This document shows, one piece after another, positions 14,339 through 58,429 of a stretch of 64,000 bases of DNA. The stretch is taken from contig CP121341.1 in assembly GCA_043513745.1 (NCBI GenBank), forward strand, positions 298,599-362,598, in the 5' to 3' direction. This DNA is from Hyphomonadaceae bacterium (GTDB taxonomy: Bacteria > Pseudomonadota > Alphaproteobacteria > Caulobacterales > Hyphomonadaceae). Below the pieces are notes generated by a model that had not been told where the DNA came from, made no database searches, and saw only the letters and a list, made by a program, of their open reading frames with translations. A program made the position numbers and the translations under genes. The first letter of the stretch is position 1. Each line of letters starts with the position of its first letter.

Positions 14339-15925
14339 ATGAGCGATCTCCAATCTCTCGCAGAAACCGCAAAAGCCTGGCCGTTTGAACAAGCGCGCGC
14401 CTTGCTGAAACGCCTGCGCAATATGGAGAAACAGGGCAAACCGAAACAGGGCCCGGTCGTGTTCGAAACCGGCTATGGTCCGTCAGGCTTGCCGCATATC
14501 GGTACGTTCGGCGAGGTCGTGCGCACCACGATGGTCAAGCAGGCCTTCGAAGCGCTGACCGACGGCGCGTTTGAAACCCGGCTGATCTGCATCTCTGATG
14601 ATATGGACGGGATGCGGAAAGTCCCGCCAACGGTGCCGAACCCGGATTCGCTTGAGCCCTATCTGCAGCAACCGCTGACCGCTGTGCCGGATCCGTTTGG
14701 CACGCATGAGAGCTATGGCGCGCATATGGGTGCCCGGCTCTGCGCCTTCCTGGACAATTTCGGCTTTGAGTATGAGTTTCTGTCCGCGACCGAATGCTAC
14801 AAGAATGGCACGTTCGATCCAATGTTGCTCCGCGCGCTGGAAAAGTTCGACGAGATCATGGCCGTGATGTTGCCAACCCTCGGCGCAGAGCGTCAGGCGA
14901 CTTACTCGCCATTCCTACCCATCTCACCGACCACAGGCCGCGTGCTCTATGTGCCGATGAAGGCCACCGACCCGAAAGCCGGGACGATCACGTTCGAGGA
15001 TGAAGACGGGACCGACGTGACCCTTCCTGTCACAGGCGGGCACGCCAAGCTGCAATGGAAACCTGATTTCGGGATGCGCTGGGCGGCTCTCGGCGTCGAT
15101 TTCGAGATGTTCGGCAAGGACCATCAGGACAATGCGCCGATCTATTCCAAGATTTGCCGGATCCTCGGCGTGCAACCGCCGCAGCAATATGTCTACGAAC
15201 TCTTCCTGGACGAGCAAGGCACCAAGATCTCCAAGACCAAGGGGAATGGGATCGCGGTTGAAGAGTGGCTGAAATACGCCCCGCAAGAGAGCCTGTCTCT
15301 GTATCAGTTCCAGAAGCCGCGCGTGGCGAAGAAGCTTTATTTCGACGTCATCCCGAAAGCCGTTGATGAGTATCTGACCTTTCTCGAAAAGTTCCCGGAT
15401 GAGGAACCTAAAAGACAAGTCGAAAACCCGGTCTGGCACATTCATGGCGGTACGCCGCCGGAAGAAACTTCGCCTGTCAGCTTCGCGCTATTGCTGAACC
15501 TTGTGAGCGTGGCCAATGCGGAAAACCGCGAGCAGCTTTGGGGCTATATCTCTCGCTATGCGCCAGGCGCATCTGCGGAAACTCACCCGCTGCTCGACCG
15601 GCTCGCGGGATATGCGTTGGCCTATTACCGCGATTTCGTGGAGCCGACCAAATCCTACCGGGCACCCGACGAGCAGGAACGCGCCGCCATGGCCGATCTT
15701 GCGACGCGCTTGCGGGCCTGGGATGCGGACGTGGATCAGGGCGAGCTGCAAACGCTCACTTTCACCGTCGGCAAAGAGCATGAGTTCGAAAACCTGCGCG
15801 GTTGGTTCCAGGCGCTCTACGAAGTCCTGCTGGGCCAAAGCCAGGGCCCACGCTTCGGCGGCTTTATCGCGCTCTATGGCGTCAACGAAACCGCGCAACT
15901 GATCGAGGACGCGCTCGCACGCTGA
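14339..15925 (+). CDS. lysS: Lysine--tRNA ligase, class I
   Basis: [28 protein letters not shown] and GPRFG motifs. Confidence 0.97.
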
Positions 15926-15982
15926 TGGTCGTACGCGGGCGGTTTTGGTTGATGGATTGGGGCGGGTTTAAGCCACTCCGAT

Positions 15983-16012
15983 AATGTCCGCTTTCGGGTC
16001 ATAGCGGACGTT
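15983..16012. repeat. Palindromic cassette-boundary element E1
   Basis: AATGTCCGCT-TTCGGGTCAT-AGCGGACGTT. Confidence 0.85.
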
Positions 16013-16044
16013 AGGCGGTCACGGATCGAACGTGCTTCGACTTT

Positions 16045-17037
16045 TTATTCGTTGAGTTCTAAATCCGTTGGCGGCTCGAACGCTCCGATGGTTTCGATTC
16101 GGGATTCGATCGCGGCTCGACTGACGCTCCAATGATCCAAGGTTTCGCGATCATTCATCCCGCGATCAGCAGCGAGCGCAGAGATGCGTCCCATTCCCGA
16201 AAATAGCGTCGTCGGGAGCTGAGCGGCGATCGGATCAGCGAAGGCGATGTCCGGATTCACGATCTCCCAGCCATCCTCGCGCAAGCCGTCGACCATCTCG
16301 GTGGTAAAGCTCGCGGCCAGATCATTTTCGTGCAGCAGCAATACTTGTACGGGACGACGATCAAGGACACGGAGCGCTAAATCGTCATAATGCGCGGCGG
16401 CGTCGACAACCATATCGACGTAGACGCGAGACAGAGCATCCATATTCACCTCTTTTCCGTTTCGGACTGCGTCAGCCCAAAGCGAATCGAGATGCCAGTC
16501 ATAGGTGTCGACCGTTACATATCCGCTGAGTAAGTCGCGTTGCTCGAGCGCTGCGCGGAGCGAGTCGCGTTTCTCAATGCTTCGCGCATCGGAGACTGAA
16601 CCGCCTTCATCCAGATATGGAAACCGAAACCAAGGGCGCCGATTCTCAAATATGCTGAGACGCGCCTCTGCGCGGTCGATGTCAGAGATGTAATCCTCAA
16701 GTGAAGTTCGGCTCGCATGATTGTGCTGATCACTGTGATTGGCAATCAAATGCCCCGCAGCGGCATAGTCAACGATCCGGTCGACGCCTTCGGTCTGATC
16801 CAGCCTTCGCGTCGTCACGAAGAACGCCACTGGCCCAGTTTCGGCCTCGGCCCACTGCGAGATCAAAGCGTCCGTTCGTTCGCGCCCAGAAAACCGGGGG
16901 CCATCGCCAAGCGGCCCGTCATCGTAGGTCAGAGCGATTTTTTTCGGCGTGGACTCCGGTGCTTCCTTCGCCGGTTCTTGAGCTGAACACCCGCAAACAA
17001 TACTCAACATCAACACACACGAAAGCCGTAACCACAT
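16045..17037 (-). CDS. Polysaccharide deacetylase (NodB/CE4 family), probable lipoprotein
   Basis: LTYDDGP, NHSDQH, WFRFPY and LLLHEN motifs; signal peptide from ATG 17037 with RBS AAGGGAG. Confidence 0.88.
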   Translation of the reverse strand: MWLRLSCVLMLSIVCGCSAQEPAKEAPESTPKKIALTYDDGPLGDGPRFSGRERTDALISQWAEAETGPVAFFVTTRRLDQTEGVDRIVDYAAAGHLIANHSDQHNHASRTSLEDYISDIDRAEARLSIFENRRPWFRFPYLDEGGSVSDARSIEKRDSLRAALEQRDLLSGYVTVDTYDWHLDSLWADAVRNGKEVNMDALSRVYVDMVVDAAAHYDDLALRVLDRRPVQVLLLHENDLAASFTTEMVDGLREDGWEIVNPDIAFADPIAAQLPTTLFSGMGRISALAADRGMNDRETLDHWSVSRAAIESRIETIGAFEPPTDLELNE

Positions 17038-17121
17038 GACAGCACATCTCCCCTTAGAATTGATTAGCGGATGATACCTGCAACCAGGTATCGCATCCAT
17101 CCCCGCTTTCGTCCCAGAATC

Positions 17122-17152
17122 GGTGTCCGCTTTCGGCGTGAAAGCCGACGTT
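17122..17152. repeat. Palindromic cassette-boundary element E2
   Basis: GGTGTCCGCTTT-CGGCGTG-AAAGCCGACGTT, with a C:C stem mismatch. Confidence 0.75.
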
Positions 17153-17155
17153 TGC

Positions 17156-17446
17156 TTACTCAGTCTCGATTCCGTAGGTCTTTCGCTTGTACGCTCGGAA
17201 CACCACGCCGACCCCTGCTGTAAATCCCCAAAACAAGATCACCGGAATGACGATGAATGGCCACGTCATCAGATGCACTTCGAGTATTCCCTCAGCGATA
17301 CCCAATGCCTCAGCGTCCAAGGCGGTATCGATTCTTTGTTCAAATGTTCCCTTTTGTCCGAACCAAATCAGCGCACTTAGCCCAAGGACGCATGCAGCAA
17401 GGAAAAGGCGAAAGTACATGATTGAATCAAACTTCATTACCTTCAC
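17156..17446 (-). CDS. Small two-TM hypothetical membrane protein
   Basis: 96 aa with two hydrophobic helices; fills the space between E2 and E3. Confidence 0.7.
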   Translation of the reverse strand: MKVMKFDSIMYFRLFLAACVLGLSALIWFGQKGTFEQRIDTALDAEALGIAEGILEVHLMTWPFIVIPVILFWGFTAGVGVVFRAYKRKTYGIETE

Positions 17447-17482
17447 TCTGCAGCCGTAGTTCTATTTCTTCAACACCCATGT

Positions 17483-17511
17483 AATGTCTGCTCCTGACCC
17501 AAAGCGGACAC
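17483..17511. repeat. Palindromic cassette-boundary element E3
   Basis: AATGTCTGCT-CCTGACCCAA-AGCGGACAC. Confidence 0.85.
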
Positions 17512-17524
17512 TTCTGGCTATGAT

Positions 17525-18142
17525 CTATTGGGCTTTGAGTGGCATCCCATAAAGCGGGCGAACCTCGTCAGGGACTAAGCTCATGTCGATTGTTATGCCT
17601 CGCTCGGCTCCAATGCGTCCGACGATGGCGCCAATCTCGGGGGGTGTTAAATCCCCTGCAGACGCGACCTCCATGGCAACGGCATCAAAAAAGTCATCAA
17701 ACTCTCCCGAAGATGTTCCCACCAGCAAGGTTGCGTCCTCGTCGCCAGCATTCCACAGTGCGTGCGACCCGCCGCGCGGGAGCATGACCAAACCGCCCGG
17801 TGAAATTGTCTTTTGTTGGCCGTCTGCCATAAACGTGACCGTCCCTTCTCGGACATAGAAGAACTCGTCCTCATGCGTATGCGTATGCGGCGGTGCACCA
17901 GCGCTGTTTGCTGGCACTTTGATCTCAAAAAGACTTAGACCGGCATCATTGGTCTCAGCACCAACCAACCGCGTCGTCGGATGAAGTGGAAAGTCGATTG
18001 GTTCGCCTTCGCCGACATCAATTAGAAGTGCTGGTTTTGCTTCAGTCGTGCTTGTTGTATTCTCGGCAAAACTAGACGATGTGCATGCCATTAGCGCGAA
18101 TGCTGACATGCCTGCTAGCGCTCCACCCGATAAACTTTTCAT
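17525..18142 (-). CDS. Cupin-domain protein, probable lipoprotein
   Basis: PPHTHTHEDEFFYVREG and PRGGSHALWN cupin motifs; start ATG 18142 with RBS GGGAGG; LMAC lipobox-like. Confidence 0.88.
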   Translation of the reverse strand: MKSLSGGALAGMSAFALMACTSSSFAENTTSTTEAKPALLIDVGEGEPIDFPLHPTTRLVGAETNDAGLSLFEIKVPANSAGAPPHTHTHEDEFFYVREGTVTFMADGQQKTISPGGLVMLPRGGSHALWNAGDEDATLLVGTSSGEFDDFFDAVAMEVASAGDLTPPEIGAIVGRIGAERGITIDMSLVPDEVRPLYGMPLKAQ

Positions 18143-18239
18143 CGCGAATCCTCCCTCTTTCGAAAATACAATGCGGGAGGCCTCTCGGTTCTGCAAGTTT
18201 CGTTCGTTCCGCTAATTTCGGCCAATGTCCGCTTTTGAC

Positions 18240-19465
18240 TGCGGATTCAAATGATCGTCGCAACACTTTAGTTTGATTGGAAACTGGAGTGGAAGTCATG
18301 AAGCAACGTCGACGCATTTATTACTCAGAGTCTCAGAGAGCGGAGATATGGGATCGCTGGAAGCGCGGGGAGACCATGAACGCCATTGGTCGCGTGTTTG
18401 ATCGTGGTCATTCTTCGATCTTTTCGGTTCTAGAGCCAACAGGTGGTATTCGCCCACCTGCACGTAGGCGCTCTGCCGGCGCTTTGTCTTTGTGCGAGCG
18501 CGAAGAAATCTCACGCGGTCTTGTTTCTGGTTTGTCTATGCGAGCGATTGCAAAGTCCCTGGGCCGGACTGCATCCACAATCAGCCGGGAGGTCAAACGC
18601 AATGGCGGACGGCGCGCCTATCGTGCAATCAAGGCGGATAAGCGCGCATGGGAACAAGCATTGCGCCCCAAGCCCTGCAAGCTATCTGGCAGCGCCTTCC
18701 TGCGCAGAGCTGTTTCTGCCAAACTACGCTCTGATTGGTCGCCCCAGCAAATTTCTGGTTGGCTCAAGCGAACCTATCCAGAAGATGAGCATCGCAACGT
18801 GTCGCATGAAACGATCTACAGATCTCTTTTTGTTCAGGCACGCGGTGTTCTGAAGAAGGAACTGCAGGCGTATCTGAGGACGAGACGTGCGGTGCGCCGA
18901 TCAAGACAAACAAGCTTGAAGCGAAATGGTATTGGCCAGATCAAGAACACCATATCTATCAGCCAGCGCCCTGCATCGGTTGAAGATCGCGCTGTGCCCG
19001 GACATAGGGAAGGTGATCTGATTGGCGGTTCAAAGAATAGCTATGTGGCCACATTGGTGGAACGTCATTCGCGCTATGTCATGCTGATTAAAGTGGCCAA
19101 CAAAGACACTCAGGGTGTTGTGACGGCACTCATCAAACACGCCCGTCGCCTGCCGGATGAATTGTACAAATCCCTGACTTGGGACCGCGGGAAGGAAATG
19201 GCGGATCATCAACGCTTTACATTGGCGACAGACATACAAGTTTATTTCTGTGACCCACAAAGCCCTTGGCAACGCGGATCGAACGAAAATACCAATGGTC
19301 TATTGAGGCAGTATCTGCCCAGGGGAACCGACTTGTCCCTCCACAATCAGGCTAAGCTGAATGCCATTGCAAGAAAGCTCAATGAGAGGCCAAGAAAAAC
19401 GCTGGACTATGAGACCCCGGCTGAGCGATTAAATGCGTGTGTTGCAGTGACCAATTGAATCCGCA
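18240..19465 (+). mobile_element. IS30-family insertion sequence, 1226 bp
   Basis: 27-bp terminal IRs TGCGGATTCAAATGATCGTCGCAACAC / TGCGGATTCAATTGGTCACTGCAACAC (22/27 identical); 2-bp AC duplication. Confidence 0.95.
18298..19458 (+). CDS. IS30-family DDE transposase
   Basis: Two HTH regions, SHETIY, EGDL, TWDRGKE and PWQRGSNENTNGLLRQY motifs. Confidence 0.95.
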   Translation: MKQRRRIYYSESQRAEIWDRWKRGETMNAIGRVFDRGHSSIFSVLEPTGGIRPPARRRSAGALSLCEREEISRGLVSGLSMRAIAKSLGRTASTISREVKRNGGRRAYRAIKADKRAWEQALRPKPCKLSGSAFLRRAVSAKLRSDWSPQQISGWLKRTYPEDEHRNVSHETIYRSLFVQARGVLKKELQAYLRTRRAVRRSRQTSLKRNGIGQIKNTISISQRPASVEDRAVPGHREGDLIGGSKNSYVATLVERHSRYVMLIKVANKDTQGVVTALIKHARRLPDELYKSLTWDRGKEMADHQRFTLATDIQVYFCDPQSPWQRGSNENTNGLLRQYLPRGTDLSLHNQAKLNAIARKLNERPRKTLDYETPAERLNACVAVTN

Positions 19466-19518
19466 ACCCAAAGCAGACATACCGAACATCTCTCTCAGCG
19501 CGCCAGATACTGCCCATC

Positions 19519-20271
19519 CTACCCCACCAACGCCGCCAGTTCTCCACACGTCGCGACCAGGCGCTCAATGTCCTGCTCGCGGGAGAGGCGGTGGTCGCCG
19601 TCCTTGATCAGGGAGAAGACCAGCTCCTCGCTCTTCAGCGCTTCAACCAAACGGAACGCGTGCTGCCACGGCACGTCGGGGTCCTGCATGCCCTGGAGGA
19701 TGCGGATGGGACAGGTCAGATCAATCGGTGCATCCAGGAGCGCCCATTTTTTGCCATCCTCAATCAGGTCACGGGTGATCGGGTACGGGTCGCCATAGTC
19801 GGACGGGCGCAGCGTGCGGCCCTGGTCCATGATCTCGGCTTGTTGCTCAGCGCTGAACTCGGGCCATATCAGTTTCTGTGTGAAGTCCGGGGCGGGCGCG
19901 ATCAGCACCATAGCCGCCACCCGGTTCTTCAAGGCGAGGGCGGACAGAAGCGCCATCCAGCCGCCCATGCTGGAGCCGACCAGAACGAGCGCGCCGGAGG
20001 TCAGGCCCTCAATCGCGGCGAGGGCATCCTCGCGCCAGGCTGAGATCGTCCCGTCTTCGAAATCCCCTCCAGAGACGCCGTGCCCTGAATAGTCGAACGC
20101 CAGGAAGCCATGCCCCGCCTGTTGCGCCCAGGTCTCCAGCACGGTGACTTTCGTGCCCGTCATGTCGGACTTGAAACCGGACAGCCAGACAAAGGTCAGC
20201 CCGCTCGACGGGGCGGAATACCGGTACGCCAGGCGGCGCCCTTGCGGTGAAACAAAATCCTTATGCTCCAT
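19519..20271 (-). CDS. Alpha/beta hydrolase (ABHD10-like)
   Basis: GFKSDMTGTK, GSSMGG nucleophile elbow and KDGDHRLS. Confidence 0.9.
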   Translation of the reverse strand: MEHKDFVSPQGRRLAYRYSAPSSGLTFVWLSGFKSDMTGTKVTVLETWAQQAGHGFLAFDYSGHGVSGGDFEDGTISAWREDALAAIEGLTSGALVLVGSSMGGWMALLSALALKNRVAAMVLIAPAPDFTQKLIWPEFSAEQQAEIMDQGRTLRPSDYGDPYPITRDLIEDGKKWALLDAPIDLTCPIRILQGMQDPDVPWQHAFRLVEALKSEELVFSLIKDGDHRLSREQDIERLVATCGELAALVG

Positions 20272-20376
20272 GCGCACGCTCCTTCTCGCCCGGCTTCGCC
20301 CCTTCTACTGCAACTGCTTGCGCAGACTGGCAACTTCTTCGTTTCAATGCGCGGCCAAATCAGTCACACTCAGTGG

Positions 20377-47166: not shown

Positions 47167-47227
47167 AATTGGCGCATAAGAATGGTTGCGGAGCGCCAAA
47201 GCGCGGTGTATGCAGCGCGCTTCTGAT

Positions 47228-47304
47228 GGTTCGGTAGCTCAGCTGGTTAGAGCGCACGACTCATAATCGTGAGGTCGGGAGTTCAAGTCTCCCCCGAACC
47301 ACCA
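47228..47304 (+). tRNA. tRNA with CAT anticodon (elongator Met or Ile2), CCA encoded
   Basis: Acceptor stem GGTTCGG/CCGAACC, D arm, anticodon arm CACGA-CTCATAA-TCGTG, GTTCAAG T loop; G1-C72 pair excludes the initiator type. Confidence 0.93.
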
Positions 47305-48453
47305 TTCACTACCTTGATTTTCAATGATTTTTATCTGCTCCAGCATATAGTCGGAGATAGAGGTGTAACGCAATTGTAACGCAACCTCCGAGAGGAACGC
47401 ATCAATAGCTGCGGTAGACTTGAAGAGGTATGACGGATCAAAGGGAGCGTAGATCTCTGTCGTGCTCACATCGGGAGATTTGTGACCGAGCTGCGCAGCG
47501 ACCTCCCACGCAGGAACGCTGCTTTTTCTCAGCCATCGGGCCATCGTGTGACGAAGGCCATAAGGTTGAACGGCCGCGTCCAACTTCGTTGCTTTTCGAA
47601 CTGTTCGCCAAGCGGTGCGAATGCTCTTTACGGGCGTTCCTTTGAATTCAATGACGTGGCCTGTTTGACTCAATTCCTGTTGCTTCAGCAGCCAAGGTTT
47701 GACGGTCTGCGGGATTTTTACTTGAGGGCGAAATTTAAGTGTCTGCTCTCGTCCCTTTGGATTGAGATCGATTAGATCATTGCGAAAATCGACCTGTTCG
47801 AACTTCAGGTCCAGGATCGCTCTATTCCGAGACGTGCCGGAGATCATCATCACGATGAACGCTTTCAAATGATACTCGGCATTGTCGATGAGCTCCGCCA
47901 CTTCCTCGACCTCCAGCGGACGCCCTTTTGGCGGCGGCGTCGGCACCTTGACGAGTTCTATGTAAGGGACTGACGCGAGCTCACCTCTTTTCCACGCCCA
48001 ATTCAACGCCGCCTTTCCGACCGTGAGAATCTGCCGCATAGAATTCTTCGAGAGGTTCATTTCATTCTGTAGATACTCTCGGTACGCTTGCTGCCGCGCT
48101 GGGGCGCACGCCTCTTTGACCGTGGCTGTTTTGTGAAAGTCTAACCAATATCGCAGGTAGCGCTGAACGTTATCGTGGCTGCGCAGCTTGGATCCATATT
48201 GTTCATAGTAACGAGCGAAAAGTTCGGCGAGCGTGGATTCTTCAGGCGCCTCTTCAGTTTTCGTATGAAAAAGCACAAACCAGTCGGTTAGTGCTTGCCT
48301 GGCTTTGTCAAAATCCGATGTGCCGAGGCTAATGCGGCGTGTTTGTCGAGCTTCGTTGTCAAACCAGGTTCTGTACCACGCTTCACTCTTAGGCCGCTTC
48401 GATAACCAGAATTCGCCGATCTGAAATGGCTTCTCCGAGTTGTATCTGGGCAT
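47239..48453 (-). CDS. Tyrosine integrase; C-terminus encoded antisense across att and the tRNA
   Basis: R..AILDL, YGLRHT, LGH and EIYA catalytic motifs; ATG 48453 with RBS GGAGAG; last 21 residues are tRNA antisense. Confidence 0.92.
   Translation of the reverse strand: MPRYNSEKPFQIGEFWLSKRPKSEAWYRTWFDNEARQTRRISLGTSDFDKARQALTDWFVLFHTKTEEAPEESTLAELFARYYEQYGSKLRSHDNVQRYLRYWLDFHKTATVKEACAPARQQAYREYLQNEMNLSKNSMRQILTVGKAALNWAWKRGELASVPYIELVKVPTPPPKGRPLEVEEVAELIDNAEYHLKAFIVMMISGTSRNRAILDLKFEQVDFRNDLIDLNPKGREQTLKFRPQVKIPQTVKPWLLKQQELSQTGHVIEFKGTPVKSIRTAWRTVRKATKLDAAVQPYGLRHTMARWLRKSSVPAWEVAAQLGHKSPDVSTTEIYAPFDPSYLFKSTAAIDAFLSEVALQLRYTSISDYMLEQIKIIENQGSEWWFGGDLNSRPHDYESCALTS
47364..47384. repeat. 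Tandem TGTAACGCAA repeat, probable integrase arm-type sites
   Basis: TGTAACGCAA-T-TGTAACGCAA, 60 bp from the tRNA end. Confidence 0.65.
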
Positions 48454-48692
48454 GGTTCGCTCTCCATTGAATTCACCAAACATTGAATCAACTGGAACCC
48501 GAAAAAGCAAATCTTTCTGGGGGAAACTCGAACAAATTCGATATCGCCGCTATTACGCAATCGTCTCAACGAGACGATTGAAAGATTGAGGACTTCCGCT
48601 GCTTCTCGCTCGCTGTATTTTCTATACAAATTCAGGCCCTGCGCCTCTGCGATACGTTCGTGGAATTCCGATAGTTCAGGTATCTCATTCAT
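48288..48692 (-). CDS. Excisionase-like HTH_17 protein overlapping int by 166 nt
   Basis: YSEREAAEVLNLSIVSLRRLRNSGDIEFVRVSPRKI; ATG overlaps the copG stop (ATGAATGA). Confidence 0.75.
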   Translation of the reverse strand: MNEIPELSEFHERIAEAQGLNLYRKYSEREAAEVLNLSIVSLRRLRNSGDIEFVRVSPRKICFFGFQLIQCLVNSMESEPCPDTTRRSHFRSANSGYRSGLRVKRGTEPGLTTKLDKHAALASAHRILTKPGKH

Positions 48693-49137
48693 TCGGGCAA
48701 CCCTCCGAAGAAGAGGTGCCATCAGTTCTGCGGATCAATGAAGCGTTTGAATTCTCAAGCACGCCGCCGGCGGATAAGTTTCGAGCCACTTGATTGAGGA
48801 AATGATCGTAACGCCTTTTTCCAAGGGACTGCGCCGCATCTCGCTCGCCATCCGGTATCGGCTCCATCCGGGTGAGCCAATAAAGAACGTAATGACAAAT
48901 TGTCTCGAGACAGACTGCGATATCTCGTTCAATTGCTCCCTGGCGTATGTCGAACTTATCCAGTCGATCGAGTAAACGCTCTTCCAATCCCAGTTTTGAG
49001 TCAGGGCAAAAATACGCGCGCAAGGCTGTCTCAATGATGGCCGTTTTGGTTACGCCAGGGCGGCGCGCCTCCTCATAGAGCAGTGCGTGCAGATCGGTTG
49101 GAATGTGAATATTGATCCGAGGTTTGGCCATGCTCAA
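48685..49137 (-). CDS. CopG-like ribbon-helix-helix protein (Tn4371-type, follows traG)
   Basis: RINIHI..EARRPGVTKTAIIETAL; ATGA overlap with traG. Confidence 0.85.
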   Translation of the reverse strand: MSMAKPRINIHIPTDLHALLYEEARRPGVTKTAIIETALRAYFCPDSKLGLEERLLDRLDKFDIRQGAIERDIAVCLETICHYVLYWLTRMEPIPDGERDAAQSLGKRRYDHFLNQVARNLSAGGVLENSNASLIRRTDGTSSSEGCPNE

Positions 49138-51053
49138 TCCATTGGGAAGTAATCACTATCGTCGCTTCGATCCAACGCCGCGAGTTTTGCGCGTTTGCTG
49201 GACTGCTCATCCGCGTCATCTGCGACCGCAACGTTCGGTTCGGACTGGCATGATCGTTCAATCTCTGCGCTTTCTGATCGTTCTGGAAGCTCCATCTCTA
49301 ACTGTCTGCCTGAGGACGTCGTCGCGCCAGACGAGGTCAGCGAAAATCTAATCGAAGCACAAATAGGTCTGGGTTCATCTTCAAGCTTTGGCGGGGCAAA
49401 CACGCGTGACGTAAAATTTCTGTCCTTGAAGTATCGAAGCTTCTTGGCTCGAACCGGTGGACACCCCGCCACCATCACAATCTCCTCGTTTGGAGCCAGT
49501 TGCATGACTTCGCCCTGCGTCACGAGCGGCCGGCTGGTTTCCTGCCGCGAGACCATCATGTGAGATAACCATGGCGCAAGCCGGTGACCGGCATAGTTCT
49601 TTTGAGATCTGAGCTCGGTCTTTGTGCCAAGCGCTTCTGAAACGCGCTTGGCTGTGCGCTCATCATTAGTCGCAAACGCGACCCGGACGTGACAATTGTC
49701 GAGGATAGAGTTGCTCGGACCATATGCTTTCTCGATCTGATTGAGCGACTGCGCGATCAAAAACGCGCGGATCCCGAAGCCCGCCATATACCCAAGCGAC
49801 TCTTCAAAGAACTGAAATCGTCCGAGCGCCGGAAACTCATCCAGCATCAAAAGCAATTGACGTCGCTCGGTACTAGCCAAACGTTCAGTGAGCCGTTTCA
49901 GAATTTGATTTAAAATCAGCCGAATGAGCGGCTTTGTTCGCGAAATGTCGGATGGCGGTATGACGAAGTAAAGCGAGGTCGGGCGCGCAGCATTGACGAT
50001 ATCATTGACGCACCAATCGCTTGCGCCAGTTACTGAAGCGATGATTGGATCGCGGTAAAGCGTTAGAAAACTCATGGCCGTGGAGAGCACGCCCGAACGC
50101 TCATTCTCCGATTTGTTCAGAAGCTCGCGCGCAACCTGCGCAATCGTATCTTTGACATCGTGCTGCGCATGTTTGGCTTTGAGCATGACGCCGAGCGTCT
50201 TCTCAAACGTCCGAGAAGGATCAGAAAGAAACCGCGCGCACCCTGCAAGCGTTTTATCGTCTTCGACATAGAGCATATGAAGGATCGCACCGACAAGCAG
50301 TGCATGGGCTGTTTTCTCCCAGTGACTGCTCCGTTCAAGACTACCTTCTGGATCGACCAAAATGTCTGCAATATTTTGAACATCACGCACCACATTCAGA
50401 TCGAGGCGAACTTCAGCAAGCGGATTGTATCGCGGCGAGGCCGGATCGGTGGGGTCAAACCGGATGCAGCGTGAGAACTTCGATCGCCATCCGGACGTCA
50501 GGTCCCAGTTCTCCCCTTTTATGTCATGAATGATCGTGCTCCCAGTCCAGGAAAGCAGAGTCGGGATGACGAGCCCGACGCCTTTACCCGATCGCGTTGG
50601 TGCAAAAGCGAGAACATGTTCGGGGCCGGCATGGCGAAGGTACTTTCCGTCCCATGTCCCAAGGAAGACGCCGTCATTCTTCAAGAGTCCAGCTTTGCGA
50701 ACATCACTCTCATCAGCCCACCGCGCGGAGCCGTAAGTTGTGACATTTCGCTCATAGCGGCTGCGCCAGACGGACCCCATCACTGCTGCAACGATACCAA
50801 GCAGACCGCCGCTTGCTGCGATCATGCCCGCTTGAGTGAAGATCTCTGGAGCGTAGGCTTCATAAGCGTACCACCATTGAAACAGGCGCCATGGTTTGTA
50901 GACGGGCGTTTCGAGAGCAACGAACCATGGCGCGCCCAATGCAGGTTGAAAATCGAGTTGATGAGCGATCCATTGGGTCGCGCCCCAAACCGTTCCGATA
51001 ATGATCGCGAAAACAATGACGATTTGACCGATCAAAATTTTTGCTGGGGTCAT
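49134..51053 (-). CDS. traG: Type IV coupling protein TraG/VirD4
   Basis: APTRSGKG, HDIKGEN, LDEFPALG, AQSLNQ. Confidence 0.96.
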   Translation of the reverse strand: MTPAKILIGQIVIVFAIIIGTVWGATQWIAHQLDFQPALGAPWFVALETPVYKPWRLFQWWYAYEAYAPEIFTQAGMIAASGGLLGIVAAVMGSVWRSRYERNVTTYGSARWADESDVRKAGLLKNDGVFLGTWDGKYLRHAGPEHVLAFAPTRSGKGVGLVIPTLLSWTGSTIIHDIKGENWDLTSGWRSKFSRCIRFDPTDPASPRYNPLAEVRLDLNVVRDVQNIADILVDPEGSLERSSHWEKTAHALLVGAILHMLYVEDDKTLAGCARFLSDPSRTFEKTLGVMLKAKHAQHDVKDTIAQVARELLNKSENERSGVLSTAMSFLTLYRDPIIASVTGASDWCVNDIVNAARPTSLYFVIPPSDISRTKPLIRLILNQILKRLTERLASTERRQLLLMLDEFPALGRFQFFEESLGYMAGFGIRAFLIAQSLNQIEKAYGPSNSILDNCHVRVAFATNDERTAKRVSEALGTKTELRSQKNYAGHRLAPWLSHMMVSRQETSRPLVTQGEVMQLAPNEEIVMVAGCPPVRAKKLRYFKDRNFTSRVFAPPKLEDEPRPICASIRFSLTSSGATTSSGRQLEMELPERSESAEIERSCQSEPNVAVADDADEQSSKRAKLAALDRSDDSDYFPMD

Positions 51054-51147
51054 TGAGCGCTCGCAGACAATTCAAACATGCGATGCAATCTGCCGAAACG
51101 AACATGCGGCGCCTAGTTGGAGCGCAAGCAAACGCCTGCAAATCCGA

Positions 51148-53025
51148 TCATCGGCTCAGTCCACGCGTTCGGGAGCGAGTGATTGAGAATCTGATCCCAG
51201 AGGGTGTGCGCTCGATAGACAAATCTCGTCCCCGCAGATGAGTCAGGTCACGCCGCCATGGGACCAGCGTGAATTCCTTGCCATTACTCAGCAGTGCCAT
51301 TCTCCCCTGCCCCAGATCCAAGTGTCCTTTGTAGCGACCTCGGAACTGGTCACCAGTGGAAAGCGCCCGGTAAGTCTCTCCTGTGTTCAAGGCATGCGCT
51401 TTCGCAGCCTCATACAACTCGGCCTGCGCCATGGCTGTCTTATCCGGCGATCCGCGCGCCTTCAGAACGAGGTGTCGTTTTTCAATCGCAGACCTTAAAT
51501 TAGGGATCTCATTGTCGCTCAATCTATCCAACCAGACAGGACCGCGAGACTCAATCTGATCGGCGATGCTGAGCCAGGATTTCACGGCGACTTTCGGCCC
51601 ACCGCGTGAACGTTCGAATGCTGCAGCCCGTTTCAGATAATCATCTGGAATATCCCAGGTGCCATCCGGTTGCCGCTGTACGATACCCGTACGGCGCAAG
51701 GATTCTAATCTTCGCTTATGGGTTTCCCGATAAGCGGCTGTAGATGAGGGATCGAATGCCGCGTGAAGGTCATTCGAATAGAACCCACCATTTCGTTCGG
51801 CGATTTTGTCGATGGTTCGGTCTGCGGGTCGCGGTTCGCCCGCGCACTGCGCAACCTCGATGATGGCGCCGTCGGCAAGCGCAAGATTTTCACCGCCAGG
51901 GACATGCCAAGTGACCCCTTCAAAATCGCGGACAATGAGGAACCGTCGATCTCGCAATTCGTCATCCGGACCAGATTTCAGAACTTCTCCTAAAAGAGCC
52001 GGTTCATCACCCGATCTATCACCCCACAACTTGAGAGCATTTTCTGTGATTTGAGCGCTGTGTTCAGCCGCGAGAGAACGGATAACATCACCGCGTCGGC
52101 CCATCGAGTTTAGAGTTCTTTCCCACCCTCGTTTCATCTGCCATTGATGAGCGCCATCTGGTTTAGCGAGATGTCGCGATTGAAGATGCGCCAGCCGGCG
52201 CAGATGGAGGTTGCGATCGAAACGGTCTCTCGTGCCCGATGCAGGCTCTATGATAATTCGATCATCGCGTTCCAGATCCGCGAGCTTTTGGTCAAGGCCC
52301 GTGAATCGATCTTGCGAGACCTCTGATTGCTGTGCTCGAATAATTTCAAGATCGCGCCGGGGGCCAAGCCTGCGCGTGGCCAACTCTTCTGCACGTCGGC
52401 GAAGACCTTGGGTCAGATAGTTTCTTGCGATGACCAGATCGCGTCCGCGACCGTCTCGCCCTCGGATCACAATATGCGTATGTGGGTGACCGGTATTGTG
52501 GTGATCAACGGCGACCCAGTCGAGCTTCTGGCCCAGGTCGGATTCCATTTGCGCCATCAGTGTTCTCGTATTGGATTTAAGATCCTCAAACGCATGCCCA
52601 TCTTCAGGCGACACGATGATCCTGAATTGGTGTCGGTCGGACTCGCTGTTCTTGAGGAACCGGCGTCGATCAACCTTTCCGCCTTCTCGCGTATAGAGAT
52701 CACCGCCCGCGCCATCTCGATCGACGCCATCTCGTTGAAGATAGCCGAGATGGGCGCGAAACGCCCCTAATCCGCTCCTGCCACGGGCTCGGGCAATATG
52801 GACTTTGACGACCACTCGGCGCATTCGAAATCGCGGCAATGATGAGGACGCAAATCGAACAGCGCTTCCACGACCAATTCGCGCGCCGGTAAAGCCAGGC
52901 TTTTTGGGACCACGGTTTAACCTGGCCGCAGCACGCGTGATTTTGCTCCGAGCGCTCCGCCCGCTTCCACGCCCAAGATCGCGGATCCTGCCAAGCCGAG
53001 GCGTAAAGTCAAAATCCTCGCTCAT
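51148..53025 (-). CDS. VirD2/RlxS-like MOBP relaxase (DUF3363)
   Basis: RRVVVK, HLGYLQRDG, FRIIVSPED, DHHNTGHPHTH; start trimmed to MSEDFDF. Confidence 0.93.
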   Translation of the reverse strand: MSEDFDFTPRLGRIRDLGRGSGRSARSKITRAAARLNRGPKKPGFTGARIGRGSAVRFASSSLPRFRMRRVVVKVHIARARGRSGLGAFRAHLGYLQRDGVDRDGAGGDLYTREGGKVDRRRFLKNSESDRHQFRIIVSPEDGHAFEDLKSNTRTLMAQMESDLGQKLDWVAVDHHNTGHPHTHIVIRGRDGRGRDLVIARNYLTQGLRRRAEELATRRLGPRRDLEIIRAQQSEVSQDRFTGLDQKLADLERDDRIIIEPASGTRDRFDRNLHLRRLAHLQSRHLAKPDGAHQWQMKRGWERTLNSMGRRGDVIRSLAAEHSAQITENALKLWGDRSGDEPALLGEVLKSGPDDELRDRRFLIVRDFEGVTWHVPGGENLALADGAIIEVAQCAGEPRPADRTIDKIAERNGGFYSNDLHAAFDPSSTAAYRETHKRRLESLRRTGIVQRQPDGTWDIPDDYLKRAAAFERSRGGPKVAVKSWLSIADQIESRGPVWLDRLSDNEIPNLRSAIEKRHLVLKARGSPDKTAMAQAELYEAAKAHALNTGETYRALSTGDQFRGRYKGHLDLGQGRMALLSNGKEFTLVPWRRDLTHLRGRDLSIERTPSGIRFSITRSRTRGLSR

Positions 53026-53069
53026 TTGACCTGCACCACGCCTGAGCCCCGTAAATATTGCGCGCTCAA

Positions 53070-53231
53070 GCGAAACCTGCACTGCAATACCGTGCAAAGG
53101 ACACTAAAAAATCGATGTGCAGACAATGTCTTATGCGCCGGATGGTGCATGAGCTTTAATCTTGCCCTACCGGGTCCGCTATCAACTTCCGCCATTTTCC
53201 TTGCACCGCTTTGCATGCGCTTGCACCGCTT
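53070..53231. other. Putative oriT
   Basis: TAATCTTG^CCC (53157-53167) resembles the MOBP nic consensus YATCCTG^Y; TTGCACCGCTT direct repeats at 53201 and 53221; lies between traF and the relaxase. Confidence 0.5.
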
Positions 53232-53731
53232 CATCGCGAGACATCAAAGAGGAGGACGGCGATGCCGTCCAAGTCTTTACGTTTTGTGACCCCAAAATAG
53301 CGTCCATCGAGTGATTTTGGGTGTACGTTGAGCAAGAAAATTTCATCTTCTGAAAGCATGAAGCATCCGCTCCAAACCGGTAATTCTCGTTGCAAATCGT
53401 CTTGCTTAAGAGCTATTGCGCGGACCTCGCCGTTGATGAGAATGATCTCATTTTCACGGCATATTTTATCGCCTGGCAGTCCAGCGATCTGCTTCACAAG
53501 AGGCCAATCTTCGCCAACATATCCATTATGTTGAGCCCATTGGCTGCCATCGCTTTTGGGTGAAAGGACGGCCCAACGATCATAAGCGACAGGGCCGTCT
53601 TTCACCCAATAAAGACCGATCGGTGTACTCGCAGTCCGGTTCCAGACCAAGCGCTTCTGATGGCCAAGAAATGGTGCGAAAATGAGCGCTCCAATCGCCA
53701 TCAGGCCCAGGCCCAAACTCAGCCATTTCAT
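53231..53731 (-). CDS. traF: S26-family peptidase TraF
   Basis: WNRTASTPIGLY, PLVKQIAGLPGD, SLDGRYFG. Confidence 0.9.
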   Translation of the reverse strand: MKWLSLGLGLMAIGALIFAPFLGHQKRLVWNRTASTPIGLYWVKDGPVAYDRWAVLSPKSDGSQWAQHNGYVGEDWPLVKQIAGLPGDKICRENEIILINGEVRAIALKQDDLQRELPVWSGCFMLSEDEIFLLNVHPKSLDGRYFGVTKRKDLDGIAVLLFDVSR

Positions 53732-53970
53732 GAGTCTTTGCGAATACGCTGCGATGTCGAGGCGTAGCTGTTTCGCTCAGACCAACGGATCAGTTCAGGC
53801 TTGGGATAGAATACCCGCGCGCCATGCTTGCGATAGATTGGGCCACGTCCTTCGCAGCGATAATGGTCCAGCGTGGACCGGGTAAGGCGTAGGAATTTCG
53901 CTGCCTCTGTAACGGTCAGAAGTTCTGGCCAGTCGCCTGCTTCTAGTCTTGGGTTCGTAGATTCTGACAT
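53728..53970 (-). CDS. RdfS-like HTH_17 recombination directionality factor
   Basis: LLTVTEAAKFLRL..TLDHYRCEGRGPIYRKHGARVFY; upstream of traF, as in ICESym rdfS-traF-rlxS. Confidence 0.8.
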   Translation of the reverse strand: MSESTNPRLEAGDWPELLTVTEAAKFLRLTRSTLDHYRCEGRGPIYRKHGARVFYPKPELIRWSERNSYASTSQRIRKDS

Positions 53971-54095
53971 GTTCGATCTCCCTGTTTCGTCTTGGTGTCG
54001 ATGGGAGAGCCTTGCGGGAATATGCGGCAGGTCGGGAGCGGAAAAATGAGATGGAGAGGTTTTTCCCCTGCGCGCTTAACCATACCATTCATACT

Positions 54096-54126
54096 AAAAA
54101 CCGCGCCGAGAATGGTCTCGGCGCGG
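54096..54126 (-). terminator. Rho-independent terminator after DUF736
   Basis: CCGCGCCGAG-N6-CTCGGCGCGG then TTTTT on the minus strand. Confidence 0.8.
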
Positions 54127-54150
54127 CTCTGACTGAGATAGGGATTTAGC

Positions 54151-54474
54151 CTAGTCGCGTGGGCTCCAGAGGATCACATGACGCCCTTTCTTGCCTTTGA
54201 CCGGGGCGAGGTTCGCATAGATCCGACGCGGTCCGATTTGCGGATCAGCCAGAGTGAGCGATACATATTCGCGGCCCGATGCTTTGGCTTTTCTGAGCCA
54301 TCCCCCGCCGATTTCTGTAGTCGTTTCGCCTGCGAAGATGCGATAATCGGGCTGTCCGTCAGTGGTCTTTTCCTCATTCTTTGCAATGCGGATCGAGGCT
54401 GACAGGTTCATCATGGCGAGCATGCCTTCAAATCCGGTTTTCGTTTCGCTGACATATCCAAGTGCGTTTGCCAT
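54151..54474 (-). CDS. DUF736 family protein
   Basis: QPDYRIF..EIGGGW..SGREYVSLTLADP; true start MANALGY. Confidence 0.88.
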   Translation of the reverse strand: MANALGYVSETKTGFEGMLAMMNLSASIRIAKNEEKTTDGQPDYRIFAGETTTEIGGGWLRKAKASGREYVSLTLADPQIGPRRIYANLAPVKGKKGRHVILWSPRD

Positions 54475-54499
54475 TTTAAGTCTCCTTTTCGTTTCTTTG

Positions 54500-54710
54500 G
54501 CGTGTCTTCGGGAAGCTTCATGCCCCGTCGACGCCGGACCGAAAGGCCGCTGAAATTGCCTTCTGAACCCAACGGGGCGGAGCGTACGCGGAGCACGGGG
54601 GAGAACAGGAATTTTGCTGCGCGAGGAGGCGCGCCAGCGCCGGGGAAAATTCCTGTTTGGACCCGTTTCAGATGGCGGTTTCAGCGGCCAGGTCCTCCAG
54701 GCAAGAGACG
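54500..54710. promoter_or_regulatory. Long nested stem-loop upstream of DUF736 (ssDNA-promoter-like)
   Basis: ggccgctgaaa 54545 / tttcagcggcc 54679; aacaggaatttt 54604 / aaaattcctgtt 54646; ggacc/ggtcc. Confidence 0.6.
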
Positions 54711-54832
54711 GGTCTTGAGGCTGATAAGAAAGCAACAGTAACGAAGGAAAACTGTTGCAATAAAACGGGAAATTCAAAGAGAAACGAGCCGGGCTCGAAG
54801 TCCAGCTCGCCCTGATCGATCTGGCATTTTAG

Positions 54833-56566
54833 TTACGATGCGCCTGCATTGATGGCATCGAACAGTCTGCTCACCCGCTCCCAGGCATCCGCAGGTGGTG
54901 AAGGTGCATCTGAAATAATTCGGCGAGGTGGCACCGACATCCAATCGGGTTGCCAATCAGAATTTTGATCACACCCTATCCCGTCAATTCGGTTTGTGAT
55001 GACCTGTTTTTGAACCTTCGCCGTGTCAGTGCGGCATTCATCGGCGAGGGTTTTGGACCCAATGTCTTCGACCATGGCATTGATGGCGCGTTTGTCCCTG
55101 ACCAAAGTCCAGAAGGTCTCGTCCGGTTGCCAATATTTGGACGGGTCAGCCTCGCAGACATGCAGTACGGCTTCGACCACATTGCCGCCTGCTTCGAGCG
55201 TTTCAGACATGACAAAGGCGACAATATCGAACACATCTTCATCGCTCATCTGGAGTAAGGCGGCGAATATCTCGACCAGACGATAGCTATCTGAATTGCG
55301 GCGCGCTTTGCCATTTACACCTTTGTCTTGGAACAGAGTATCGACTTTTCCTCCAGCCGTTTTGAGCTCGCTCGCCGGAATGCTTGCTTCCACGCTGGCG
55401 CGAGTTTCGGGCGTGCGCGTGCGGCATTCATGGGCGCGAACATCCCAAAGCGCGCTGCCCGTCATCGCATGGGCGATCATCAATCGAAGCGCGATGGCCG
55501 GGCGTTTCAACAGGCTCGCCTGCGCAACCCCGTGGCGATGAAGCAGAATGTATTCAGCCAAAGGCCCGCTCATTTCTGGTTTGATCGGTGCCGTGTTGTC
55601 TGGTTTACCGTTCGAACTTTTCTCCCGACGCCGGGCCTCGGCCTGTGTAAGATATCCCTCGTGAAACGTAACCGTTCCGTCGTGGCGGATTTCGACAAAG
55701 ACTTTTCCGCCCTCCTCCAGCGGGGTCGCCACATGCTCCCATCGCTGAAAGTAATGCCCGCGCTCAAGGCAGATCACATCGCACCATCCAGCATTTTCGA
55801 ACGCATCGACTTTTTCCGAGATCGACTTCGACTGCGCCGCCCAAAACGTGTCCGGGTCGGCAAACACGCCATGATCTCCGAACAGATCGCCAATGATATC
55901 GCCTTCGAAGTGCTCAAGATCAAACAGAGCTTTATCGGTCGTGATCGACACCCCGCCTGTCACCCAAGCGCGGCAGCTTCTCCCAATCGGAGCGCGCTCA
56001 TTTTCGCTATTATGCAGTCGGACCCATTCTGCTTGCTGGACTTCGGTCGCAAGGGTCAGTGCCCGGATCGTCGACCGGTCAATTTCCTCGTCAGCATAGA
56101 GTTTCCGGATGGGCGCTATTAATGAGGCGAGCGCCATAACCCGTCTGACCAGCAATTCTGTGACACCGAAGAAATTGGCGATTTCGTCAATGCTTCGCCC
56201 TTCATCGGAAAGGCGCTTGAAGGCGGTGTATTGTTCCATCTCGCTTGCAGGCAAGCGTCCGACATTTTCGATGACGGAGGCTTCAATGGCTGCGGCAGCA
56301 TCATTCTCCGGCATAACCGCGCATGGGATGAGTGGGACCTGCCCCGTTTCTTTCGCGATCTCTTTTAGCGCGAAGAACCGACGCCGACCGGCAACGATGC
56401 CATAGCCCTTGCCCTCCTTGCGCACGAGCAAAGTCTGGCGAATGCCGCGTTCGCGGATGGACGGCAAAATGTCTGACACGTCAGGTTTCTTGCGCCCATG
56501 GCGCATATTGAGCTTGCTGACTTTCAACTGGTCGAGCGGAATGTGATTGAGGTCTGGGTGAGCCAT
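54833..56566 (-). CDS. ParB/Spo0J-like protein of the ICE leading region
   Basis: SIRERGIRQTLLVR, AGRRRF, ASVIEN..R; start trimmed to MAHPDL. Confidence 0.88.
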   Translation of the reverse strand: MAHPDLNHIPLDQLKVSKLNMRHGRKKPDVSDILPSIRERGIRQTLLVRKEGKGYGIVAGRRRFFALKEIAKETGQVPLIPCAVMPENDAAAAIEASVIENVGRLPASEMEQYTAFKRLSDEGRSIDEIANFFGVTELLVRRVMALASLIAPIRKLYADEEIDRSTIRALTLATEVQQAEWVRLHNSENERAPIGRSCRAWVTGGVSITTDKALFDLEHFEGDIIGDLFGDHGVFADPDTFWAAQSKSISEKVDAFENAGWCDVICLERGHYFQRWEHVATPLEEGGKVFVEIRHDGTVTFHEGYLTQAEARRREKSSNGKPDNTAPIKPEMSGPLAEYILLHRHGVAQASLLKRPAIALRLMIAHAMTGSALWDVRAHECRTRTPETRASVEASIPASELKTAGGKVDTLFQDKGVNGKARRNSDSYRLVEIFAALLQMSDEDVFDIVAFVMSETLEAGGNVVEAVLHVCEADPSKYWQPDETFWTLVRDKRAINAMVEDIGSKTLADECRTDTAKVQKQVITNRIDGIGCDQNSDWQPDWMSVPPRRIISDAPSPPADAWERVSRLFDAINAGAS

Positions 56567-56598
56567 AGTGGTCTCCTGCTGGGGTAAATTGAAATTGC

Positions 56599-57168: not shown

Positions 57169-57194
57169 ATCTCATCTCCGTCCCGCCCCGCATT

Positions 57195-57378: not shown

Positions 57379-57499
57379 TCTACTTATTGAGGCTGCTCAG
57401 GATTCCATGACTGATGGGCGAGCAAAAGGAGACGAAACGTTCCCCATCGAAGATCTTGTTTTCGTTACAATCGACTGACGATTGCGCTACAAGCACGCC

Positions 57500-58030: not shown

Positions 58031-58058
58031 GCCGTTTCGTGAATGCGGAGGAACGTTT

Positions 58059-58349: not shown

Positions 58350-58429
58350 TATTGGAGGGCCGGCCGATGTTGCGCGCGATATGGCCATCCTGTATTTGTA
58401 TAGATAGCAGGTGACTACTGGAGACCGCA

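Follow-up and report, generated by a model that had tools for sequence, protein, structure and literature searches.

Integrons are the textbook device for the capture of single genes. Attachment (att) cores of the lambda and P4 class consist of inverted binding arms around a crossover region of ~7 bp, with the integrase gene ending beside the site, and in cis-mobilizable elements (CIMEs) tandem insertions at one site build att-separated segments that can be mobilized in trans. The present study concerns a short hairpin-forming palindrome found four times (E1 to E4) in a stretch of 64,000 nt of bacterial DNA, hereafter the window, which covers positions 298599-362598 of the single 3.40-Mb contig (56.7% G+C) that makes up the genome of a Hyphomonadaceae bacterium (GCA_043513745.1, CP121341.1). 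In this host genome, E1 to E4 bound three accessory genes between lysS and an alpha/beta hydrolase gene. A comparison with 24 genomes of congeners in the marine genus Henriciella (labelled in the style of G001) solidly establishes that the palindrome is genus-specific and delimits single-gene cassettes in arrays, located at hotspots of the flexible genome. Its function can be stated less firmly: with a probability of about 0.5, the palindromes would be recombination sites served in trans by tyrosine recombinases.

Several described systems resemble this one in part. As in integrons and attC-site clusters that have no integrase (CALINs), the cassettes are mostly single accessory genes between imperfect palindromes, with open reading frames (ORFs) that often terminate within the site or beside it. 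Its two strands are likewise non-equivalent, arrays may occur without a nearby integrase and an insertion sequence (IS) can lie inside the array. The Henriciella site, however, is half the size or less, and its arrays occupy ~15 loci between core genes without a single attI anchor. Compared with att cores and CIMEs, the Henriciella units are single genes instead of islands, and the attB-like site is a dispersed repeat instead of a tRNA gene.

The plasmid-borne dif (pdif) sites of Acinetobacter, built as 11+6+11, bound discrete modules of one or a few genes that are found in varied contexts and contain no recombinase (PMC6449649). The Henriciella sequence is unrelated to dif, its arrays are chromosomal, its centre mostly has 7 nt and the sites within its arrays are direct repeats that do not alternate. 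In T4-type phages, promoter-early stem-loops (PeSLs) separate single ORFan genes in hyperplastic regions; insertions, deletions and replacements are bounded by the motif, and no dedicated recombinase is known (PMC2839356, PMC4122927). PeSLs are composites of promoter and terminator in lytic phages, whereas the Henriciella hairpins are chromosomal and have no conserved promoter module. The dRS3 repeat of the Neisseria intergenic mosaic elements (NIMEs), found together with minimal mobile elements, is also a genus-specific short inverted repeat, arrayed in variable regions between conserved genes (PMC1797815), and in both systems a mobile element integrates into the repeat. Yet dRS3 has 20 bp with 6-bp arms and separates non-coding RS units of 50-150 bp, whereas the Henriciella repeats separate whole genes; according to the Neisseria authors, NIME-like arrays were not seen outside Neisseria (PMC1797815). 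Finally, repetitive extragenic palindromes (REPs) and bacterial interspersed mosaic elements (BIMEs) are species- or genus-specific, are specific targets of ISs and accompany strain-specific genome 'loops' (PMC1525189). The Henriciella palindrome differs from them by its low copy number, its gene-sized clusters, its targeting by an IS30-family element and the lack of a REP-associated tyrosine transposase (RAYT) in the host genome. The system is distinct from each of its closest counterparts in site structure, host or cargo.

A genus-specific hairpin family

Noisy regular-expression scans of the genomes were replaced by a covariance model built from 46 aligned and oriented copies. The family is a 29-nt palindrome, with an 11-bp arm ATGTCCGCTTT, an asymmetric centre of 6-7 nt and then the second arm AAAGCGGACAT. 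The centre is either CGGCGTC (class A, 7 nt) or similar to GGGTCA (class B, one base shorter), and most copies have 7 nt. On one side the 3' flank T-R-G is conserved, and within 70 nt on either side no further conservation appears among 110 copies. The flank profile of these 110 copies is devoid of a T-run, as opposed to that of intrinsic terminators.

About 68 sites occur in the host genome, ~66 found by the covariance model and two that are split by an IS. A pattern search restricted to the window is not significant (2 matches versus 0.5 expected). Among congeners, 20 of the 24 have hairpins, with 1-43 copies each, and genomes outside the genus are essentially without copies. Similarly, an exact-pattern scan over the genomes of 185,579 species returned matches only in Henriciella and closely related metagenome-assembled genomes (MAGs) of Hyphomonadaceae. 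No copy was found in the 2.9 million viral contigs of IMG/VR, which does not back a phage origin, and no Rfam 15 family matches the window between 15800 and 19600 at E-values up to 1. Collectively, the hairpin family is Henriciella-specific, real and far beyond chance.

Departures from perfect pairing are concentrated at one position of the stem. In 110 strong copies, stem position 6 is C:G in 60, T:G in 31, C:A in nine, T:A in five and C:C in two; it deviates in 45% of them, whereas positions 3, 5, 8 and 9 are at least 97% invariant. An earlier reading of the window, made from its letters and hereafter called the sequence-only reading, had noticed that the stems of E2, E3 and E4 are each broken at one base, GTC[C]GC, as C:C, T:G and C:A. 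This is correct, and a random placement of the mismatch, which it had raised as a point against itself, is not what the copies display. Its statement that all four arms share one direction is incorrect. Palindromic arms have no direction, and only the centre gives one to a hairpin. Since the centres GGGTCA (E1) and TGACCC (E3 and E4) are reverse complements, the pair E1 and E2 has the orientation opposite to that of E3 and E4.

When orientation is taken from the centre alone, the whole stem contains 122 G:T or T:G pairs versus 41 A:C or C:A pairs (p = 1.5e-10, a value that overstates the independence of copies that share descent). This excess implies that the strand with GGCGT or GGGTC keeps pairing better than its complement. 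Such a wobble bias fits strand-biased deamination, or else selection acting on DNA or RNA in single-stranded form.

Arrays of single-gene cassettes

Most copies are close to another one. Sixty of the 68 have a neighbour within 3.5 kb (mean 8.8 and maximum 24 in 2000 randomizations), and at least 93% are intergenic, with a coding share of the genome of ~91% by crude gene calls. In the host genome they form roughly 15 clusters at gene-sized spacing, with few adjacent pairs 45-72 nt apart. The covariance-model scan advocated by the sequence-only reading thus finds copies clustered in arrays around variable single genes. Dispersed solitary copies, which that reading would have counted against a cassette system, are not the pattern, since the copies are clustered and almost restricted to variable DNA.

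The largest array (genome 2,584,169-2,593,712) comprises 19 sites of the same polarity between single ORFs (100-300 aa) encoded on either strand. This uniform polarity, with ORFs on both strands, does not fit gene-linked terminators. A second array, with four sites of opposite polarity, is located 6.8 kb from it with a phage terminase gene in between, and a portal-like gene follows the largest array. The region around both arrays, the two largest (genome 2575800-2597400), is prophage-like and also includes an HNH-AP2 endonuclease gene; its genes for the large terminase (2577575-2578975, minus strand) and for a portal-like DUF4055 protein (2594680-2596236, plus strand) are divergently oriented with 16 kb between them, an unusual arrangement. 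Recognizable cassette cargo includes Imm33 (1e-29), DUF6572, a weak TriTu match and an RDD protein, but most proteins belong to no family. Array DNA has ~50% A+T versus 43% genome-wide. In G005, an array begins with an integrase gene and a hairpin, followed by about ten co-oriented units in which each ORF stop abuts a hairpin.

The order of sites was counted over 145 sites in 47 arrays from the host genome and its relatives. Neighbouring sites have the same polarity in 73 of 98 pairs (49 expected) and the same centre class in 65 of 90 pairs (45 expected), with p < 2e-4 by permutation in both cases. Recombination requiring matching crossover regions would yield such homogeneous arrays. The ends of arrays are ordered as well, as + ... 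- in 18 cases and as - ... + in one, and runs are often closed by a site of the other class and of opposite polarity (B+ then A- ten times). A further closing example consists of A+ eighteen times and then B-. Two candidate determinants of polarity were rejected, namely the abutting ORF inside arrays (~10 concordant versus 12 discordant cases) and the direction of replication, both polarities being found within clusters and on both replichores. At array edges, polarity usually matches the incoming core or flanking gene (~11 cases versus at most two). Hairpins are located 0-60 nt past stop codons, and the next start codon is 40-110 nt away.

These data also bear on the main rival of the recombination-site reading, in which the hairpin would be a passive REP-like element, a structural or regulatory palindrome acting as stabilizer of transcript 3' ends, attenuator or operator and travelling with a genus-specific pool of accessory DNA. 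Cassette boundaries would then coincide with hairpins because the latter are intergenic, and shuffling would amount to homologous recombination, ordinary or phage-type, across the 29-bp repeats, as in PeSLs. The position of hairpins between stop and start codons and the polarity at array edges are in line with such a role, the one-strand G:T excess fits selection on an RNA or single-stranded fold, and the largest array sits between phage terminase and portal genes. Many hairpin-bearing genomes are without a linked recombinase, and PeSLs are a precedent for stem-loops that shuffle single ORFs without a dedicated one (PMC2839356). What makes this reading less likely than recombination sites is the lack of a U-tract and of any conserved promoter or module beyond three flank bases, together with an in-array polarity that is independent of ORF direction yet uniform along mixed-strand arrays. 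In addition, centre class is homogeneous within arrays, the viral contigs contain no copies and a 29-bp repeat offers little length for RecA-dependent exchange within a cell.

The lysS-hydrolase locus

The array in the window is bordered by two convergent core genes and contains the following features, listed by position in the window.

14339-15925, plus strand: lysS, class I lysyl-tRNA synthetase (Pfam tRNA-synt_1f, 7e-127), conserved core gene and left border of the hotspot
15959-15974, plus strand: second motif GGGGCGGGTTTAAGCC (consensus GGGGCGAGTTTAAGCC, from which it differs at one base), located 9 nt upstream of E1
15983-16014, polarity plus: hairpin E1, centre class B (CGGGTCA), 41.3 bits with the R1 model, array boundary on the lysS side
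16045-17100, minus strand: cassette gene 1, polysaccharide deacetylase of family CE4 (Pfam Polysacc_deac_1, 2e-14)
17122-17154, polarity plus: hairpin E2, centre class A-like (CGGCGTG), R1 40.7 bits
17156-17446, minus strand: cassette gene 2, 96-aa protein of no known family with two hydrophobic segments (2-TM)
17481-17513, polarity minus: hairpin E3, centre class B, R1 37.0 bits on the minus strand
17525-18196, minus strand: cassette gene 3, cupin-domain protein (Pfam Cupin_2, 2e-16)
18224-18239, minus strand: hairpin E4, left half (AATGTCCGCTTTTGAC), including one copy of the AC duplication (18238-18239)
18240-19465, plus strand: IS30-family insertion sequence of 1226 bp in the E4 loop, with its transposase ORF at 18277-19458
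19466-19480, minus strand: hairpin E4, right half (ACCCAAAGCAGACAT), 34 nt from the hydrolase stop
19519-20277, minus strand: alpha/beta hydrolase (Pfam Hydrolase_4 and Abhydrolase_6), conserved core gene and right border of the hotspot

Orthologues of lysS (82-95% identity) are present in 22 of the 24 congeners and those of the hydrolase in 23. Gene calls and Pfam agree with the sequence-only reading on three minus-strand accessory genes between the convergent borders, and the four related palindromes are where it had placed them, each 4-58 nt from a stop codon. E1 ends in GTTAG, and its fold as single-stranded DNA has -11.2 kcal/mol on the top strand versus -8.9 on the bottom strand. The C:C mismatch of E2 is at stem position 6, and 4 nt separate E2 from the stop codon of the 96-aa gene. 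Stem position 6 of E3 is T:G on the plus strand of the window and C:A on its own oriented strand. Once rejoined, E4 has polarity minus and a class B centre; its stem position 6 reads C:A on one strand and T:G on the other.

The gap between the two border genes was compared in the 15 congeners that carry both on one contig. In G010 and G005 the stop codons overlap (CTAG, 2 bp) and no hairpin is present; in G003 the gap has 280 bp and holds the sole hairpin of that genome. The empty site predicted by the sequence-only reading therefore exists, in two hairpin-free forms and one with a single hairpin. Other gaps measure 567-4122 bp and contain mostly unrelated genes. None of the 15 has homologues of the CE4, 2-TM or cupin genes in this gap, so that the conserved synteny which would have spoken against gene capture does not occur. 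Where hairpins are detected at the edges of the gap, they have polarity + beside lysS (G004, G007, G009, G021 and the host genome) and - beside the hydrolase (G003, G004 and the host genome). The gaps L020 (G003), L010 (G019) and L009 (G006) contain a palindromic repeat of another kind, CTCATCCTGAGCGAAGTCGAAGGA paired with TCCTTCGAC...GCTCAGGATGAG as its complement, which indicates that the hotspot gathers more than one repeat family. The hydrolase frame of the host genome appears to be ~9 codons longer at its C-terminus (19519-19560) than in the empty-site congeners G010 and G005. This difference suggests that the first insertion landed at or in the hydrolase stop codon, altering the end of the protein.

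Gene gain and loss at hairpins

The association of hairpins with variable DNA extends beyond this locus. At 33 loci of other genomes, 58 of 62 hairpins (94%) lie in DNA that does not align to the host genome, although 52% of the DNA of these loci aligns. All 15 gaps between aligned blocks that contain hairpins are indels, replacements or synteny breakpoints, as against 29 of the 46 hairpin-free gaps. Hairpins within 100 nt of the edges of synteny blocks are weakly enriched (27% versus 15%). They occupy the interior of variable segments and not only the borders.

One cassette has been copied between contexts. A unit of 546-548 bp encoding a 142-aa protein, and bounded at both ends by hairpins, occurs in three contexts. 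Two copies, 1680713-1681260 and 2591015-2591562, belong to different arrays of the host genome and are 88% identical; in both, the stretch of homology has its two limits within the hairpins, the cassettes on either side are unrelated and the gene has kept its orientation relative to hairpin polarity. Given this 88% identity, and hairpin arms that are too alike, the crossover cannot be placed within the two copies. The third copy, in the MAG of another species, also has hairpins at both ends, and its adjoining genes are those found at 0.523 Mb in the host genome. In two more shared blocks, just one of the two ends coincides with a hairpin. Exact-protein look-ups for near-identical strains found none on record, and strain-level polymorphism was not seen.

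An IS30-family element in the hairpin loop

The element that splits E4, left unmentioned in the sequence-only reading, encodes a transposase matching NCBIfam NF033563 (281 bits, cut-off 80) and Pfam HTH_38 and rve. Its DDE transposase, its terminal inverted repeats and the short duplication of its target are the attributes of the IS30 family. Its inverted repeats of ~26 bp (TGCGGATTCAA...) are unrelated to the hairpin, and the AC duplication accompanies both copies in the genome. The second copy, at 1536353-1537580, is 99.8% identical and occupies the same loop position with the same junction. Throughout the genus, all six full-length copies lie between hairpin halves: two in the host genome, three copies of a relative with 69% identity in G010 and a single one in G014. 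This IS30-family element inserts specifically into the hairpin loops. The IS families listed as targeting REPs are IS3, IS110, IS4, IS256 and IS5, without IS30 (PMC1525189); an element of the IS30 family can therefore also be specific for a REP-like target.

A second motif near the hairpins

A scan of the genome for the second motif at four mismatches was swamped by chance matches. Repeated at two mismatches or fewer, it gave nine matches (~2 expected), of which eight are intergenic and five lie within 50 nt of a hairpin. The motif recurs in a composite arrangement (hairpin, ~18 nt, motif, ~9 nt, hairpin) and also beside the integrase gene of G006. Its possible roles are those of an arm-type binding site or of another kind of cassette boundary.

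Further occurrences, GGGGCGAGTTTAAGCC(GCTGAG), are at genome positions 1168392, 1169201, 2560339, 2560838, 2576820, 2802897 and 2803909, often with a hairpin 9-20 nt away; the copies at 2.56 Mb and 2.80 Mb bracket single genes without hairpins. At the latter place, a frame of 244 aa (2802148-2802882) encodes a tyrosine recombinase reduced to its catalytic domain, which scores below the XerC, XerD and IntI cut-offs. The motif lies 15 nt past its stop codon and again after the next gene.

Candidate enzymes

No integron integrase was found with TIGR02249 over the complete host genome, where the best match reaches 72.7 bits against a cut-off of 265 and all matches are generic tyrosine recombinases. 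That best match (72.7 bits over 57 profile positions; L001, genome 868101-868274) belongs to a 103-aa frame with only the C-terminal catalytic part of a tyrosine recombinase. It is not near any hairpin and is probably a gene remnant. A degenerate classical integron, that is a CALIN, is accordingly a barely tenable explanation of the arrays. It would account for single promoter-proximal ORFs between imperfect palindromes, for the many ORFs that stop inside or beside the site, as in integron cassettes, and for the GTTAGGC end of E1, which fits the attC R' consensus GTTRRRY. Against this, the sites have 29-35 nt, compared with ~57 nt or more for attC, and form a single uninterrupted stem devoid of R''/L'' or L'/R' boxes and of extrahelical bases. 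Their outer pairs are mostly AAT/ATT, most copies end in ATT and not in GTT and have no AAC partner, GTTRRRY ends being confined to some copies such as E1, and the cassette ORFs lie on both strands. Furthermore, integrons, In0 elements and CALINs were absent from all 243 alphaproteobacterial genomes of a survey, an absence that its authors called 'extremely puzzling' (PMC4889954). The sequence-only reading had proposed a cassette system distinct from integrons; it was right that this is no classical integron and that no enzyme is encoded at the locus, and wrong in its directional argument for this locus.

That reading had also considered an enzyme of the HUH or RAYT type, which the host genome does not encode: PF01797, the Y1/RAYT profile, has no match in the complete sequence, whereas six control genomes are positive. 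This makes it very improbable that the hairpins are REPs, or their paired form REPINs, spread by a RAYT or another HUH single-strand transposase, with the link to cassettes being incidental. Several traits do recall REPs. The palindromes are short, imperfect and genus-specific, their one-sided flank (CTAAT on the complementary strand) resembles the REP 5' tetranucleotide, a single-strand bias is present and they are targets of ISs, as REPs are (PMC1525189). But the ~68 copies are few and clustered instead of dispersed, and their spacing, a few adjacent pairs excepted, is gene-sized and not that of REPIN doublets (70-100 bp). Moreover, both polarities coexist in single clusters, without any replichore-wide rule of orientation.

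Host XerC/XerD recombinases acting on dif-like sites form another option, in which the cassettes would be the chromosomal counterparts of the Acinetobacter plasmid modules. A universal host enzyme would explain arrays without a linked integrase, and the architecture is suggestive, with 11-bp arms, a centre of 6-7 bp, a conserved inner palindrome and one side better conserved than the other (PMC6449649); island edges bear inverted sites, as dif modules do. The proposal is nonetheless improbable. The arms GTCCGCTTT / AAAGCGGAC are unlike those of canonical dif (...CATAA / TTATG...), the centre mostly has 7 nt and not 6, and the sites within arrays are mostly direct repeats that do not alternate. 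Three approaches, near the GC-skew extremes and elsewhere, located no canonical dif in the host genome that could serve for comparison.

A screen for genes that recur beside arrays singled out P4-type tyrosine integrases (Arm-DNA-bind_3, Phage_int_M and Phage_integrase domains). At five of the 26 loci of such integrases in the genus, a hairpin of constant polarity lies at or within ~100 nt of the 3' end of the gene. Hairpin-terminated genes of this type occur in four congeners, and at three loci the TAA stop codon is itself part of the CTAAT flank of the hairpin. The linked integrases are divergent (27%-43% identical to that of G005), save for the G005/G011 pair (83%). The block common to G005 and G011 starts ~90 nt upstream of the integrase gene and stops where the hairpin ends. 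It contains only the integrase gene and the hairpin, as expected of a minimal unit of integrase plus site. A degenerate palindrome lies upstream, and no matching empty site was found. The co-occurring recombinase sought by the sequence-only reading may be of the P4 type, hairpin-linked at these five loci; neither IntI nor RAYT was found in the host genome.

The host genome has two intact homologues of the P4-type integrases, both hairpin-free. It also has a fragment of ~85 aa (genome 1228921-1229184), corresponding to the N-terminus of such an integrase and cut by an IS3-type transposase gene; hairpin cluster 4 is 6 kb away from this fragment, which shares 43-51% identity with the congeners' hairpin-linked integrases. 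The window itself contains an integrative conjugative element (~47200-60000) with a 436-aa tyrosine integrase (genome region 346044), which is free of hairpins of the Henriciella family.

Recombination in trans as a possible mechanism

The reading favoured here, with the even odds given at the outset, is that the palindromes are recombination sites on which tyrosine recombinases would act in trans. Four lines of evidence make it the preferred one, namely a layout matching the core sites of tyrosine recombinases, arrays homogeneous in polarity and centre class, the hairpin-to-hairpin copying of a cassette and the integrase genes that end in a hairpin. In mechanistic terms, palindromes of the E1-E4 type would be joints at which DNA is gained, lost or copied, and each would be a core-type site with two binding arms around a crossover region. 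The P4-type integrases whose genes end inside a hairpin are the best candidate enzymes. An integrase gene with its hairpin may constitute an autonomous unit, the CE4, 2-TM and cupin cassettes being non-autonomous cargo. The array in the window would then be a non-autonomous one, built into an ancestrally empty site, and E4, its last site, would now be disrupted by the IS.

A series of observations weighs against this interpretation. As regards the enzyme, 21 of the 26 integrases are not hairpin-linked, so that the integrase genes may be mere cargo; most hairpin-bearing genomes are without a linked integrase, and G023 has 20 hairpins and no P4-type integrase at all. As regards the sites, a first insertion into a hairpin-less site is not site-specific recombination between hairpins, and the one-strand G:T excess points to a single-stranded form, for which a double-stranded core-site model has no need. 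About half of the variable or filled lysS-hydrolase gaps have no detectable hairpin, so that gene turnover at the hotspot is not strictly hairpin-dependent. Copying bounded by hairpins on both sides is seen in one cassette only. Finally, CE4 homologues (61-67% identity) in six congeners have no hairpin within 1.5 kb, and the best cupin homologue (80%, in G024) is at another locus with one hairpin 1.2 kb away. The claim that these particular genes travel as cassettes is weakened by homologues that are mostly devoid of flanking hairpins.

It is tempting to go one step further, tentatively, and to propose capture of an integron-like kind. The site would be a minimal palindrome of 29 bp, small autonomous units of P4-type integrase and hairpin would supply the enzyme, and non-autonomous single-gene cassettes would be cut out, inserted and shuffled in trans among ~15 chromosomal hotspots and a prophage. 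The cargo would amount to dozens of cassettes, including immunity-like proteins, enzymes and ORFans. As with attC, a folded single strand may take part, as suggested by the wobble bias.

Significance for the flexible genome of Henriciella

Henriciella is an alphaproteobacterial genus with an integron-like genome anatomy, yet with a far smaller and different site and without IntI. If the palindromes are recombination sites, they would represent an independent solution to modular gene capture and offer a compact 29-bp site that might serve in genetic tools. Should the integron-like reading prove true, cassette arrays would have been invented independently in a class reportedly devoid of integrons. 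If the hairpins are passive, shuffling of the PeSL type would extend to cellular chromosomes, for which the PeSL authors had no evidence (PMC2839356), and NIME-like repeat arrays, described as Neisseria-specific (PMC1797815), would be known from another genus, Henriciella. Under either reading, the hairpin model offers a practical means of finding Henriciella's flexible gene pool.

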